From: a virus
Reading direction: 5' to 3' (one strand)
Length of the DNA stretch: 64,000 bases
IMG/VR virus record: IMGVR_UViG_3300037088_000812
Coordinates: 1-64,000 of that record
Shown here piece after piece: positions 23,438-28,897 of the stretch. The notes under the pieces are model-generated. The model searched no databases. It was not told the DNA's origin and saw only the letters and a list, made by a program, of their open reading frames with translations. Made by a program: the position numbers and the translations under genes. The number at the start of each line of letters is the position of its first letter. The first letter of the stretch is position 1.

Positions 23438-25876
23438 ATGAGCTGGAAGAATTTGTTAGAAGCTATGAATGAAGAATTTGATGAGAAAGAAGTTCTGCAA
23501 AAGAAGCCCAAAGAAAGAGCCTTTTTTGATAAAATAGCAAGAGAGATTGTTGAAGAACGTGTAGATGAATTAGACTTAAAATCTGCAGTCGGAAAAGTCA
23601 AAGCAGCAGCTAAGAGAGGTTGGCAAGTTCTTAGCGGCAAACTCAAGGAAGTAGCCCTCCGCGGTTTTAAATTGGGTGTGGCGGTTGGCAAAACCCTTAA
23701 GGGAAAATTTGTTCTATTTAATAGAGCCGGTAAAATTCTAACCCCAGAAGCAGATAAAGCTGTATATAAGAAGATAGCCTCAGGTAAAAATGTTCTTACT
23801 CTAACGTATAAAAGCTCGGCAGGTCCGATGGACATCTCGCTATCTGATAAATTGAACAGTGGTTTTGGAACAGCAATTACTAAAGAAGGCGATGGTATAT
23901 TTTATGTCCTTCAGCCGCGATCACCAGCAGTTCAAGAAGGTATCGATTATGACCCAGATCTAGTTATAGAAGCTGACGAAGAGGAAGAGGAGGAAGAAGG
24001 CGGCAGTCGCTCCAATGCTTCCATCATGTCTAAAATAGATCAGTTAGTCTTTGGATCATTTGCTGATGAGGGAGCAGCAGCTCTTAAAGCCAGCGAAGAT
24101 AAACCAGTAAAGCCTGTCCCAGTTGAAGTAACCTATGAAGACTTTTCACGAGAAATAAGCACTTTGCTTCGAAGAGTAAAAGAAGGAACAGTACTAAAGG
24201 GATCTAAAATAAAGAACTTGGCTATTTATGCTCCTACTGGTTGGGGAAAAACCGAAATTATTGGTAAAGCTGCTAAATCAGCTGGGTATTTCTTCTTCCC
24301 TCTAGAATTACAAAAAGTTCCTATAGAAATTCTTTCAGGCTTCCCATTCTTAGACGACGTAGAAGCTGCCGAAAGTGATATAAAAGAAGACCGCCTACAA
24401 AGAGCCATGAAAATTGTAAAGATGGCCCCCTCACAATATCTACCGCCCGCCGGCAGTCAAGATGCTTGGCTATTATTCTTCGATGAGTTTAACAGAGCAG
24501 ATACTGAGAAGATGTCAGCAGTAATGAATTTACTTCTAAACGGAGAACTTGGTGGAGCTTCAGAGTTAGTAATAAATAAAAAGACATCACAAAAGACACT
24601 TGACAGATATAGGCTTCCAAAGAAAATAGTAGTAGTATTAGCTATGAATACTGGAACACAGAAAGCAATTGCTGATTCTATAAACGCAGTAAAGGATCTT
24701 GACATTGCAACTCTAGAAAGAGTACACAGAGTTCTTCATGGAAAATATCATGCAGAATCTTGGTTCAAATCTTTCGCAGCAGTGCCTTATGTTGCTGAAA
24801 CTGAATCTGGTAAAACAATTGCTATGCTTTCAAGAGTTCCACCCATTATTCTAAACTTCATACAGGACCTAATGAAAACGAAAGGCTCTGTAGGATTAGA
24901 TCCTGAAAAACCATTCTTGCAACCAATTAAAGTTGCGGGCGGTGAGCCTGGCTCTGGTGGAGGTGAGAGAACTACTTCACCAAGATCTTGGACAATGATT
25001 GCAGACGACATGATTGAAAATGGCGTCGAACAATTTGATAAACTCAGCCCAGAAGCTAAAGCCAAATTTGATACATCTGCTAAAAAGATAAAAGCAGCTA
25101 TAGAAGAAGAATGGGCAGAAGTAGTAAAGAAAGATCCGGATCAACCTAAAAAATTACCTCAAGATTTGGAACCTTATAGATTCGCAGCTTGGATGAAGGC
25201 AGCCCAAAACCAAATCAGACTGTTGGCCATGGAATCACCAGAGCTTGGTGACGAAGGCCAAGATTATATTCGAAAGATGATTAAATCTTTTATAAAGAGA
25301 GGTAAAGAAGGAATCACCGAAGAAGATATACTTCTGAATTATAAAGCAGTTAGAGATCAAGTAAAGAACGTTGCTGAAATTGGGTTTGGAACTAAATCAG
25401 CATTACTTGCTAGATTATATTTTGCTCTAACTAAATACAAGAACGAAAAAGCTATACTTGAATTCATGGCTGAGAAAGGCATACCAATTCTTTCATCTAA
25501 AGGACCGGTAGAACAAATTTATCTAACATTTAAACAAATGTATAAAGACTTAGATTTTGCTGCCGATGATTTTATTGCTTTCACACACTTAGTAGAACAA
25601 GCAGCTAAGAAGGCCTCACAAGAAGGCAATAACGATGCCCCTTTAAGATTACTTCATGCTAAATTAGCTAACTGGGAAATTTATGTAGATGCCCTAAAGA
25701 AGAGAGTTACTACAAAGAGCGGCGTAGAGAAAGAACTAGCGGCTCTTACTGGTGGTAAAGGTAAGACCAAAGGAAAGAAGGGCGAGAGTGAAGCGGAAGA
25801 AGGTGAAGAGGGCGAAGAAGAGGAACAAAAGGAGGACCAGATCCTTAGTTTCTTAAAAGGAATAAGACTTGAGTAG
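23438..25876 (+). CDS. large MoxR-like AAA+ ATPase with N- and C-terminal extensions and acidic/lysine-rich tail
   Basis: SD AGGAG; Walker A APTGWGKTE; Walker B/MoxR signature LLFFDEFNRAD. Confidence 0.7.
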   Translation: MSWKNLLEAMNEEFDEKEVLQKKPKERAFFDKIAREIVEERVDELDLKSAVGKVKAAAKRGWQVLSGKLKEVALRGFKLGVAVGKTLKGKFVLFNRAGKILTPEADKAVYKKIASGKNVLTLTYKSSAGPMDISLSDKLNSGFGTAITKEGDGIFYVLQPRSPAVQEGIDYDPDLVIEADEEEEEEEGGSRSNASIMSKIDQLVFGSFADEGAAALKASEDKPVKPVPVEVTYEDFSREISTLLRRVKEGTVLKGSKIKNLAIYAPTGWGKTEIIGKAAKSAGYFFFPLELQKVPIEILSGFPFLDDVEAAESDIKEDRLQRAMKIVKMAPSQYLPPAGSQDAWLLFFDEFNRADTEKMSAVMNLLLNGELGGASELVINKKTSQKTLDRYRLPKKIVVVLAMNTGTQKAIADSINAVKDLDIATLERVHRVLHGKYHAESWFKSFAAVPYVAETESGKTIAMLSRVPPIILNFIQDLMKTKGSVGLDPEKPFLQPIKVAGGEPGSGGGERTTSPRSWTMIADDMIENGVEQFDKLSPEAKAKFDTSAKKIKAAIEEEWAEVVKKDPDQPKKLPQDLEPYRFAAWMKAAQNQIRLLAMESPELGDEGQDYIRKMIKSFIKRGKEGITEEDILLNYKAVRDQVKNVAEIGFGTKSALLARLYFALTKYKNEKAILEFMAEKGIPILSSKGPVEQIYLTFKQMYKDLDFAADDFIAFTHLVEQAAKKASQEGNNDAPLRLLHAKLANWEIYVDALKKRVTTKSGVEKELAALTGGKGKTKGKKGESEAEEGEEGEEEEQKEDQILSFLKGIRLE

Positions 25877-27307: not shown

Positions 27308-28897
27308 ATGAATGATATAAAAGATTTTTTAATTGCGTTAAATGAAAGTAACGATATAACATTACTCACCGAAGCTACAATCACCTTTAAAAAACCAGAA
27401 CTCACTCCCGTCATGTTCGGAAAGCCAGGTAGTCCTGGCGCGGGCGGAGGAGGTGGCGGAGGACTTCCTCCAGCAGCTGGCTTGAAACCAGATAAAGTAG
27501 AAGTTATAAATATTGGCGGCAAGCAGCCACCAGGTCCACCTCAGCCCCACAAGGGTAAAGGTGATGCTAAACCTGGCGAAAGTATTGAAATGGAAGTTAA
27601 AAACGCCTCAGAAGTTGAGGGAGGTGAAGAAGGTAAGGGTAAGGGAAAGTGTCCCACTTGCGGCGGCACCGGTCATGTACCACACGGCGAAGGAGAAGAA
27701 GGCGAGGGTGGCGACAAAGAGGGTAAAGGAAAAGGTAAAGGTGGTGAGGGAGAAGGCGAGGGCGAAGGTGAAGGCGAGGGCGAAGGTGAAGGAAAAGGGA
27801 AAGGAAAAGGTAAGGGTGGCGGTAAAGGAGGCGAGGGTGAAGGCGAGGGAGACGTATGCCCAACCTGCGGCGGCTCTGGTAAAGCTCCTGGAGGACAAGT
27901 AGCCCAACAGCCCACTAAAGATTCACATGCTATATTTGATACCTCAGATAAGGGCGAGACAAAAGATATGGCAGAAAAGATTCTTGAAAAAGCTGAACAG
28001 ATGAGACAGGATAGAAACGTCGAAGGACGAGGTGAAGGTGAAGGCGGTTACATGGATAAATTGAGAGAGCTGCATAAACCAAAAATCAATTGGGCCCAAG
28101 AGCTTAGAAAAAAGATTACTGAATTCAAATCAAGATCGGCTGCTACAATTAATAGATTTTCACAAAAGCCAGCTGAGAAATACAAAGAAGGCGAAGGGAT
28201 TCAGAAGAGTAAATCTTATTTCACTTATTTAAGAGATCCAAAATCTCACGTAAAAATTCCTGGTCAGCCACAAATGGTATTCAAAGGACCTTATGTAAAA
28301 GCACCAGTTTCAGAAATTGTATTGATAGTAGCTATGGATACTTCTGGTTCAATAGGCAAAGATACAGTCACTAAAGTATTTACAGAAATGGATAAAATAG
28401 CTCAAAGCTTTAAACGCGGCTTTAGTGCTGGAAATGTAAAGCTTGAAGGTAGAGTCTATTTCGTCACTTGGGATACAGCAGTATATGAAGCTATGGAATA
28501 CAAACCAGGCGATTGGAAAAACATTAAATTTACTGGTGGAGGAGGAACAGATTTAGCGAGTAGTTTGTTCGCCTACATAAAAGAACACACATTATATGAC
28601 AAAGAAAAACCAGCCGCAGCACTATTTAACATAGTGAAGGGTAAAAAACCAGCACCGACTGGCATGAGTAAAGACGACGTCGTTATACCCATAAAGGGCG
28701 GCCCTGATAGCCCTCAAGCAGTTATTGCCCCATTTTTGATTATTTGCACAGATGGTTATTTTGGTAATGTAAGTGATAAAGATTTAGGTCTATTATTCAA
28801 AGATAATAAAAAGAACGTACTTTATCTAATAATTGATGGTACTAGCGAAAGTTGCTATCCAAAAAACGTGATAAATTACGAGTCTTATAGAGTATAG
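27308..28897 (+). CDS. vWA-domain protein with two CPTCGG zinc knuckles flanking a (GE)n/(GK)n low-complexity linker
   Basis: CPTCGGTG and CPTCGGSG at ~27650 and ~27860; MIDAS VLIVAMDTSGSIG; TGGGGTD. Confidence 0.7.
   Translation: MNDIKDFLIALNESNDITLLTEATITFKKPELTPVMFGKPGSPGAGGGGGGGLPPAAGLKPDKVEVINIGGKQPPGPPQPHKGKGDAKPGESIEMEVKNASEVEGGEEGKGKGKCPTCGGTGHVPHGEGEEGEGGDKEGKGKGKGGEGEGEGEGEGEGEGEGKGKGKGKGGGKGGEGEGEGDVCPTCGGSGKAPGGQVAQQPTKDSHAIFDTSDKGETKDMAEKILEKAEQMRQDRNVEGRGEGEGGYMDKLRELHKPKINWAQELRKKITEFKSRSAATINRFSQKPAEKYKEGEGIQKSKSYFTYLRDPKSHVKIPGQPQMVFKGPYVKAPVSEIVLIVAMDTSGSIGKDTVTKVFTEMDKIAQSFKRGFSAGNVKLEGRVYFVTWDTAVYEAMEYKPGDWKNIKFTGGGGTDLASSLFAYIKEHTLYDKEKPAAALFNIVKGKKPAPTGMSKDDVVIPIKGGPDSPQAVIAPFLIICTDGYFGNVSDKDLGLLFKDNKKNVLYLIIDGTSESCYPKNVINYESYRV

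Follow-up and report, generated by a model that had tools for sequence, protein, structure and literature searches.

We describe here Module 1, a run of genes in a 64,000-nucleotide (nt) stretch of viral DNA (positions 1 to 64,000 of IMG/VR record IMGVR_UViG_3300037088_000812; the whole stretch is referred to below as the window) that is part of a large phage genome. The core of Module 1 consists of a giant AAA+ ATPase, an HExxH protein, a von Willebrand factor A (vWA) protein and a small protein, p148, and the module is a virus-only, split, enlarged, four-component and tagged version of a phage chaperone pair that is already known. We consider it probable that the encoded proteins make up an ATP-driven machine for remodelling and processing other proteins, a reading that builds on their homology to the known pair, on the division of one cofactor between two genes, on a conserved gene order, on intact catalytic motifs and on a peptide shared by the N-termini of the four core proteins.

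The genes of Module 1 all lie on the + strand and are tightly packed. Four of them were described in a first-pass annotation made by a model from the letters and their open reading frames (ORFs), and are present as described: the ATPase gene (23438-25876, 812 aa), the gene for the HExxH protein (25869-26765, 298 aa, with a TTG start), that for a Cupin_2 protein (26768-27307, 179 aa) and that for the vWA protein (27308-28897, 529 aa). The ATPase stop and the TTG start of the HExxH gene overlap by 8 nt, the cupin ATG lies 2 nt past the HExxH stop, and the cupin stop directly abuts the vWA ATG. No terminator-like hairpin was found on the + strand before position 30895, and a promoter scan returned 35 candidates against 27.8 ± 5.4 in shuffled sequences, which is no enrichment. 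The four domain calls of the first-pass annotation (MoxR-like ATPase, HExxH, cupin and vWA) all hold, and Pfam placed DUF2201_N, Cupin_2 and the DUF2201 vWA domain above their cut-offs, leaving the ATPase with a sub-threshold match to AAA_16 only. As to the make-up of the module, the ATPase, HExxH and vWA genes stood, the cupin proved not to be conserved, and a fifth gene, p148 (28953-29408, 151 aa), which is conserved and lies immediately downstream of the vWA gene, had been missed. Two further things had been passed over, namely that the HExxH and vWA proteins are the halves of one known protein and that an unsplit paralogous pair is encoded at 32523-35076.

The giant ATPase has the catalytic apparatus expected of its class. 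Walker A (APTGWGKT) occupies residues 265-272 and Walker B (LLFFDEFNRA) residues 345-354, and the translated stretch from the one to the other, with its invariant columns, lies at 24230-24499 (+). The protein is laid out as a tag helix (residues 1-13), a beta-rich N-domain (~60-160), an acidic disordered linker (164-192), the AAA+ core (~250-512) and an all-helical C-domain (515-770). Invariant among 31 ATPase homologues are G268, G270 and K271, D349 to A354 (DEFNRA), the sensor-1 residue N404, R428 and R516; we take R428, in ATLERV, to be the equivalent of the arginine finger in ALLDRF of MoxR. The protein thus has the full set of Walker A, Walker B (hhhhDExNRA), sensor 1, arginine finger and sensor 2. 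The best Pfam match of the window protein is AAA_16, at 20.7 bits against a cut-off of 32.6. Since this single-sequence match is sub-threshold, assignment to AAA_5/MoxR needs family-level evidence, and here AAA_5 matches 14 of the 31 family members at E ≤ 0.01 (best 5.1e-9), distant long relatives reach 25-36 bits with AAA_5 against a cut-off of 22, and phrog_1297, annotated 'ATPase', matches the giant ATPase at 5.6e-14 over residues 261-447. Together with the catalytic motifs and the hhalign comparison given below, these matches support the MoxR-family assignment made in the first-pass annotation, and we place the giant ATPase in the MoxR/AAA_5 class on this family-level evidence.

The AlphaFold2 (AF2) model of the ATPase, which has a predicted local distance difference test (pLDDT) score of 65, has a beta-hairpin (370-392) ahead of the sensor-1 strand and additional elements (296-328) past strand 2. 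With pLDDT values of 44-78 there, these are candidates for the pre-sensor-1 hairpin and the helix-2 insert of the helix-2-insert clade as defined in PMC7159879. Structure neighbours of the ATPase include NorQ, RavA, CbbQ, the MoxR-MRP protein 2r44 and BchI, Foldseek with the full model returned generic AAA+ matches only, and PDB profile searches with alignments of the ATPase, the Module 2 ATPase and the HExxH and vWA proteins gave nothing significant. On the longest contig of the phage of the window (L014, 178 kb), the gene caller gives a 334-aa product at 2004-3008 in place of the 812-aa ATPase and calls an antisense ORF of 146 aa at the ATPase site; the 334-aa call is probably a gene-calling artefact.

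The known pair to which Module 1 is related is itself encoded in the window, 3.6 kb downstream, and we refer to this copy as Module 2. It consists of an ATPase of the N4 gp24 type (32523-33692, +, 389 aa; phrog_1297 at 2e-64) and a fused cofactor of the N4 gp25 type (33676-35076, +, 466 aa; phrog_1314 at 8.6e-68) that has DUF2201_N (8.4e-21) and DUF2201 (8.9e-16) on one chain. Searches by tblastn returned 814 phage records for the ATPase, among them N4 gp24 (1e-22) and a 'MoxR-like ATPase' of cyanophage S-TIM61, and 432 phage records for the cofactor, and hundreds of isolated phages, N4-like phages and Bacillus phage G among them, have the canonical pair. In group 2.2 jumbo phages, a pair made up of a MoxR protein and a metallopeptidase-vWA protein has been described, with a proposed role in virion assembly (Iyer et al. 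2021; PMC7824862, section 3.4.5). Between Walker A and sensor 1, the giant ATPase and the Module 2 ATPase match at 2e-5 by BLASTP and with 96.8% probability (E 2e-10) by hhalign. Module 1 shares with the canonical pair an AAA_5-class ATPase, the DUF2201_N HExxH and DUF2201 vWA domains, and the placing of their genes next to each other in the same order. It differs in that the cofactor is encoded by two genes, p148 is added, the proteins have a common N-terminal peptide and identity is only ~22%; the ATPase is twice as long as its canonical counterpart, with an added beta-rich N-domain and a longer helical C-domain. Judged by these comparisons, Module 1 is best described as a distant, divergent paralogue of the canonical Module 2 pair. 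The cellular couples NorQ/NorD, CbbQ/CbbO and RavA/ViaA stand further away: a PDB profile search detects no sequence similarity between them and Module 1, they have no peptidase domain, and they act on defined metalloenzymes or respiratory complexes.

Alignments of the HExxH and vWA proteins indicate how the cofactor of Module 1 relates to the fused one. The HExxH protein matches Pfam DUF2201_N (26.6 bits, cut-off 23.2) and positions 55-162 of phrog_1314, and BLASTP aligns it with residues 42-111 of the Module 2 cofactor. The vWA protein matches Pfam DUF2201 (28.5 bits, cut-off 26.4) and positions 161-344 of phrog_1314 (4.7e-22), and BLASTP aligns it with residues 220-449 of the Module 2 cofactor (1e-13). 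Because consecutive parts of both phrog_1314 and the Module 2 protein are thus aligned, the HExxH protein is most reasonably read as the N-terminal half, and the vWA protein as the C-terminal half, of the canonical fused cofactor. In ten loci, listed below, the two domains are on separate ORFs with their own starts (in the window with the cupin gene between them), and Module 1 is therefore a variant of the PHROG 1314 type, not a standard member of it.

Both halves retain the residues that would be needed for function. In the HExxH protein, H144, E145, H148, N168, D172, N176 and D178 are invariant in 8 homologues; standalone homologues number 25 and are 255-328 aa long, and weak L24 matches, at E about 0.7 only, hint at a KOW/SH3-like domain at the C-terminus. 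The vWA protein begins with the N-terminal tag, followed by a 'TFKxxELTPV' motif, a low-complexity Gly/Glu/Lys linker with two CxxCxGxG knuckles, and the vWA domain; the number of knuckles varies from 0 to 5 per homologue, and the metal ion-dependent adhesion site (MIDAS) residues D344-x-S346-G-S348, T414 and D482 are invariant. One relative of the ATPase (P0069) contains a Hint plus LAGLIDADG intein, and inteins usually reside in conserved, functional sites. The invariance of catalytic residues in all three enzymes and the presence of this intein in one ATPase homologue therefore support an active system.

Synteny extends the argument beyond the window. We compared ten split-type loci (the window, L001, L003, L004, L006, L007, L009, L012, L022 and L023), and the gene order ATPase, HExxH, vWA, p148 is kept in all of them, down to an ATPase identity of ~28% or a profile E-value of 7.5e-36. 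In each, a standalone DUF2201_N protein of 259-340 aa is followed by a vWA protein of 419-549 aa, so that the pairing of a MoxR-like ATPase with a vWA protein, recognised in the first-pass annotation, is seen in the same operon in 10 of 10 cases and includes the HExxH protein as well. All relatives examined keep the ATPase, HExxH and vWA genes in synteny; the same does not hold for the cupin gene, which had been counted with them. With a MoxR-like ATPase and syntenic core genes, the finding that prompted this analysis therefore stands.

The nearest relatives outside the long family reveal a second architecture. These three loci (L010, L024 and L028) encode ATPases of 490-510 aa that lack the first ~200 residues and match the giant ATPase at 1e-98 to 1e-104, together with a cofactor that is a single chain of 530-554 aa (HExxH, KOW-like, 'ELTPV' and vWA in this order) and matches both Module 1 halves. 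L010 and L028 also encode a homologue of p148; in L024 the contig stops right behind the cofactor gene. The long ATPase is thus found with the split cofactor in 10 of 10 loci and the short ATPase with the fused cofactor in 3 of 3. The split point lies between the KOW-like domain and the ELTPV motif, and the N-terminal extension of the Module 1 ATPase, ~230 aa, contains the beta-rich domain. Two of the short-type loci, L010 and L024, adjoin genes like those for T4 gp13 and gp15.

Unlike the canonical pair, Module 1 is rare, and its relatives come from viral and metagenomic sequence. The giant ATPase has 29 full-length relatives at 40-95% identity and one at 28%, all metagenomic. A profile search of 1.84 billion cluster representatives returned 24 at E ≤ 1e-30, so the giant-ATPase family is rare. 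Neither megablast with the whole module nor tblastn with the ATPase and the vWA protein found a match in INPHARED, so that isolated phages do not have the Module 1 family; among 185,579 cellular genomes scanned, there was a single distant match. In IMG/VR, a single-sequence pattern scan found nothing and an alignment-based scan found only two split-type contigs, one short-type locus (L028) and five distant AAA+ matches. There was no useful match in NCBIfam. An HExxH protein of identical sequence is encoded on 15 metagenome contigs, the longest of 178 kb, and 2 related contigs are viral genomes in the IMG/VR catalogue.

The two small genes of the operon have different histories. A p148-type protein of 144-182 aa follows the vWA gene wherever the locus sequence extends far enough, and p148 is probably the fourth core component. 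The cupin is confined to the lineage of the window and to L006, whose ATPase is 84% identical, and is absent from the 8 other split-type loci (L001, L003, L004, L007, L009, L012, L022 and L023); its inclusion as a module member in the first-pass annotation thus fails, with 2 of 10 loci. It is a Cupin_2 protein (56.8 bits against a cut-off of 27.2, 1.9e-15, residues 63-133) that matches phrog_13536 at 3.7e-34. Over residues 35-146 it shares 41-44% identity with cupins of a Listeria phage and of Bacillus phages Gamma, Fah and WBeta, the Bacillus phage proteins (41%) being its nearest relatives. As read from the translation, cupin motif 2 (GDAVIVPAGTYHNVIN) is intact and motif 1 has H-E-N for HxH. 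From its distribution and position we regard the cupin gene as a recent insertion exactly at the HExxH/vWA junction, a passenger that would be co-expressed with the operon and does not belong to its core. A first impression that the cupin has the N-terminal tag was dropped, the window cupin scoring below 4 on the motif model described below. A GIY-YIG/NUMOD3 homing endonuclease gene (29350-30102, +) directly follows p148, its mechanically called ORF overlapping the 3' end of p148, and is found in the same lineages as the cupin, that of the window and L006.

The feature that ties the four core proteins together is an N-terminal peptide of the approximate form M-[KR]-x-F-L-E-x-[LM]-x-E, which is conserved in their homologues. 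In the window it reads MSWKNLLEAMNEE in the ATPase, (M)SSTLLDLLEDKEE in the HExxH protein, MNDIKDFLIALNES in the vWA protein and MENMKQFLEALEET in p148. We evaluated it by leave-one-family-out scoring, in which a 10-residue motif model (a position-specific scoring matrix) built from three families scores the fourth against a background of 111 other ORF N-termini in the window. Left-out p148 and vWA proteins had median scores of 12.5 and 16.0, which none of the 111 other ORFs reached; left-out HExxH proteins had a median of 7.5, reached by 1 of 111, and left-out long ATPases one of 5.6, reached by 3 of 111. Controls (Module 2 proteins and short ATPases) had medians of -8.3 to 2.7, with 11-84% of ORFs scoring as high. 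Models from a single family gave weak cross-family scores for the ATPase and HExxH proteins, and only the combined leave-one-family-out model was convincing. The consensus of the full model is M-[RK]-[SN]-F-L-E-A-[ML]-[NE]-E. In L001, L003, L004 and L007 the four module genes, and no others, have the top-scoring N-termini of all ORFs. In the distant loci L022 and L023, whose HExxH, vWA and p148 sequences were kept out of motif training, the module genes again lead the ranking, although the L022 HExxH protein is under the listing threshold and the L023 vWA protein scores only 7.0.

The peptide is absent from the proteins of short/fused type and from Module 2. Since the short/fused proteins do not have it, the origin of the peptide goes with the splitting of the cofactor and the acquisition of a new N-domain by the ATPase. 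In both AF2 models it forms a short helix that is followed by a flexible linker. Two other ORFs in the window have comparable N-termini. One (7927-8358, +, 143 aa) begins MTNIYDVLNEETPEK, scores 9.8, which ties the best + strand score outside the module, and may encode a further tagged protein; the other, a minus-strand ORF at 36087-36542, scores 10.4. The peptide may be an address label that marks four, occasionally five, proteins for a common fate. In a milder version of the same idea, it is perhaps a docking peptide that reassembles the split enzyme on the N-domain of the ATPase.

One specific form of such an address label is a prohead-targeting propeptide like that of phage T4. If the peptide were of this kind, the phage head would take up the four proteins and pass them on with the DNA to the next host, where they would remodel or cleave host proteins early in infection, for example complexes of defence or quality control, an explanation that we consider unlikely but better placed than the other alternatives weighed below. 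In T4, the capsid targeting sequence MKTYQEFIAE is cleaved by gp21 after L/I-x-E (PMC8442874, PMC9026906), and targeting depends on residues 4 and 7, processing on residues 8 and 10 (PMC9026906, section 2.6). The Module 1 peptide has a similar length of about ten residues, stands at the extreme N-terminus of all four proteins with the flexible linker next to it, and places its basic, hydrophobic and acidic positions in the same register as T4 (M1, K/R2, S/T3, an aromatic residue at 4, E6, a hydrophobic residue at 8 and E10; T4 sequence from PMC8442874), ending in L/I-x-E. An [LI]xE within residues 4-16 is present in 100% of HExxH, 100% of vWA, 82% of ATPase and 63% of p148 proteins, compared with 12% of other ORFs in the window, and the neighbourhood of the T4 gp13- and gp15-like genes in the short-type loci points the same way. 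However, the T4 sequence scores only 1.9 bits on the Module 1 motif model, on which Module 1 members score 7-25, and many members have 2-4 extra residues ahead of the motif. Furthermore, an N-terminal helix that is amphipathic and acidic may just as well serve as an assembly tag.

We return to the remodelling and processing machine as the most reasonable explanation for Module 1. Its mode of action can be sketched on the model of MoxR/vWA couples such as NorQ/NorD, in which the vWA domain inserts a finger into the pore of the hexamer and a linker of the vWA protein is remodelled by the motor (PMC9976466, PMC13036017). Likewise, the giant ATPase would form a hexamer, with the vWA protein docked at its pore and side and the MIDAS site holding an acidic residue of the client. 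ATP hydrolysis would then pull or twist the client, which the HExxH protein would cleave, and the shared N-terminal peptide probably holds the separate parts together or routes them together. The client would most likely be a phage or host protein assembly, for example one in virion morphogenesis, as has been proposed for the canonical pair.

Several observations weigh against this reading. Taken by itself, the window ATPase falls under every Pfam gathering score, and its AF2 model is moderately confident overall and low over residues 406-435, which include the putative arginine finger. The fold of p148 returned no significant match. N4 gp24 and gp25 are listed as core genes of unknown function (PMC4193335, Table 3). 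Finally, the genes nearby are of metabolic or early type (peptide deformylase, dCMP deaminase, dUTPase) and not structural.

The placing of one of these neighbours deserves mention. The peptide deformylase gene (31452-31922, +; phrog_2890 at 4.8e-25), which belongs to the context and not to the module, lies between Modules 1 and 2 in the 7 loci that span both (the window and L001, L003, L004, L006, L007 and L009, in all six of which Pep_deformylase was called), and in L022 a Cpn10 gene (1270-1563) is found upstream. Because the deformylase sits between the modules and a Cpn10 gene stands near the L022 module, the neighbourhood suggests a theme of protein maturation.

An alternative function for a MoxR/vWA couple is the insertion of metal cofactors, as by NorQ/NorD, CoxD/CoxE and CobS/CobT, with the cupin or another metalloprotein as the client. 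The characterised couples NorQD and CbbQO and the chelatases do have metal centres as their targets (PMC13036017, PMC9976466), the top structural neighbours of the giant ATPase include NorQ and CbbQ, and a cupin of metal-binding type lies inside the operon in the lineage of the window. However, the cofactor of Module 1 has a conserved HExxH peptidase motif that the metal-insertion systems do not have, and no metalloenzyme gene is conserved nearby. As for the cupin, its absence from 8 of the 10 split-type loci means that it cannot be the ancestral client, and we judge a metal-insertion chaperone to be improbable.

We give still less credence to a proposal of the first-pass annotation, according to which the ATPase and vWA proteins mature or regulate the ribonucleoprotein of a phage Ro60. 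The Ro60 homologue (1515-3131, +; TROVE plus vWA_Ro60) has its gene upstream of Module 1 in the window, as it does in L001, L003, L004, L007 and L012 (at 2.7-8.4 kb), and a vWA domain such as that of Ro60 is what MoxR ATPases usually partner with. This co-occurrence carries little weight because these genomes share ancestry. The Ro60 gene never adjoins the module or shares its gene run; the genes between them are variable and partly on the opposite strand, and in the window the distance is 20 kb. In L022, Modules 1 and 2 are present with no Ro60 within 8 kb upstream, and the canonical pair is encoded by hundreds of other phages. Ro60 is without the N-terminal peptide, Module 1 has a dedicated vWA protein of its own, and Rfam found no Y RNA near Ro60, either at gathering scores or at E ≤ 1 over positions 1-9000. 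The proposal thus finds no backing in the arrangement of these genes.

The other suggestion of that annotation, an independent NTP-dependent conflict system such as the vWA-MoxR ternary systems (Kaur et al. 2020) or some other known system of defence or anti-defence, is just as hard to credit: it has in its favour the common MoxR plus vWA core, the many conflict genes in phage genomes and the occurrence, albeit rare, of metallopeptidase effectors in ternary systems (PMC7159879, 'Peptidase domains'), but PADLOC had no match for any of six proteins, Pfam scans of the neighbours showed neither an effector array nor a third component of the VMAP, beta-propeller or FtsH kind, and the Module 1 family is essentially absent from the cellular genomes scanned, whereas the described ternary systems are cellular.

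Other genes and elements of the window are of interest in their own right. Besides Ro60, the products include a protein like the major vault protein, GIY-YIG homing endonucleases, a PP2C phosphatase, a protein kinase, PstS, a CCA-adding enzyme, a peptide deformylase and a DnaE polymerase that is interrupted by intein and endonuclease genes. Immediately ahead of the giant ATPase gene lies that of a small DUF7695 protein (23028-23366, +), which is in the same place in L006, L007, L012 and L014-L016, and further upstream the genes of a PP2C-type phosphatase and a Ser/Thr protein-kinase-like protein lie near each other (18618-19472 and 19894-21570, +). The vault-protein homologue (10323-12863, +, 846 aa; shoulder domain of the major vault protein at 5e-25, vault repeat at 6.9e-8) is unusual for a phage genome. 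At 42153-42263 (+), Rfam reports a transfer-messenger RNA (tmRNA) match of 50.8 bits against a gathering score of 47, its 111 nt spanning model positions 1-374. ARAGORN reported no tmRNA at these positions, which may hold a minimal or fragmentary phage tmRNA-like element.

The gene for DnaE (the alpha subunit of DNA polymerase III) is in pieces at 50143-51906, 54387-55397 and 58046-59296 (+), with the PHP/N-terminal piece downstream of the finger and helix-hairpin-helix (HhH) pieces; a Hint/intein fragment is present, and a Ros/MucR plus endonuclease-like gene (53488-54411) lies between the DnaE pieces. GC content at third codon positions (GC3) is bimodal across the window. Most genes, including Module 1 and DnaE, have values of 0.24-0.37, and a subset has values of 0.47-0.65 that comprises Ro60, the vault-like protein, two ORFs at 16-18 kb, Module 2 and the CCA enzyme (high-GC3 examples are 1515-3131, 10323-12863, 16193-18120, 32523-35076, 36108-36683 and 61711-63042). 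The bimodality could reflect expression class or origin. Horizontal transfer of Module 1 was considered and rejected, since its GC3 of 0.24-0.30 matches the bulk of the genome.

The pair of a MoxR-like ATPase and a vWA-peptidase is among the 14 core genes of N4-like phages and is found in hundreds of isolated phage genomes, and Module 1 bears on how it works because the system has been split naturally, so that each part can be expressed, tagged or deleted alone, with p148 as an extra conserved partner. Two tempting inferences about this locus are corrected at the same time: the cupin travels as a passenger, and a link to Ro60 lacks support. What is new here is the N-terminal peptide on all four core proteins of the systems with a long ATPase and a split cofactor. 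If it is a docking tag, the peptide would show how a split enzyme holds together. If instead it targets the capsid, the principle of the T4 internal proteins would extend to a whole ATP-driven machine, and the peptide would offer a way to predict ejected proteins in uncultured giant phages.

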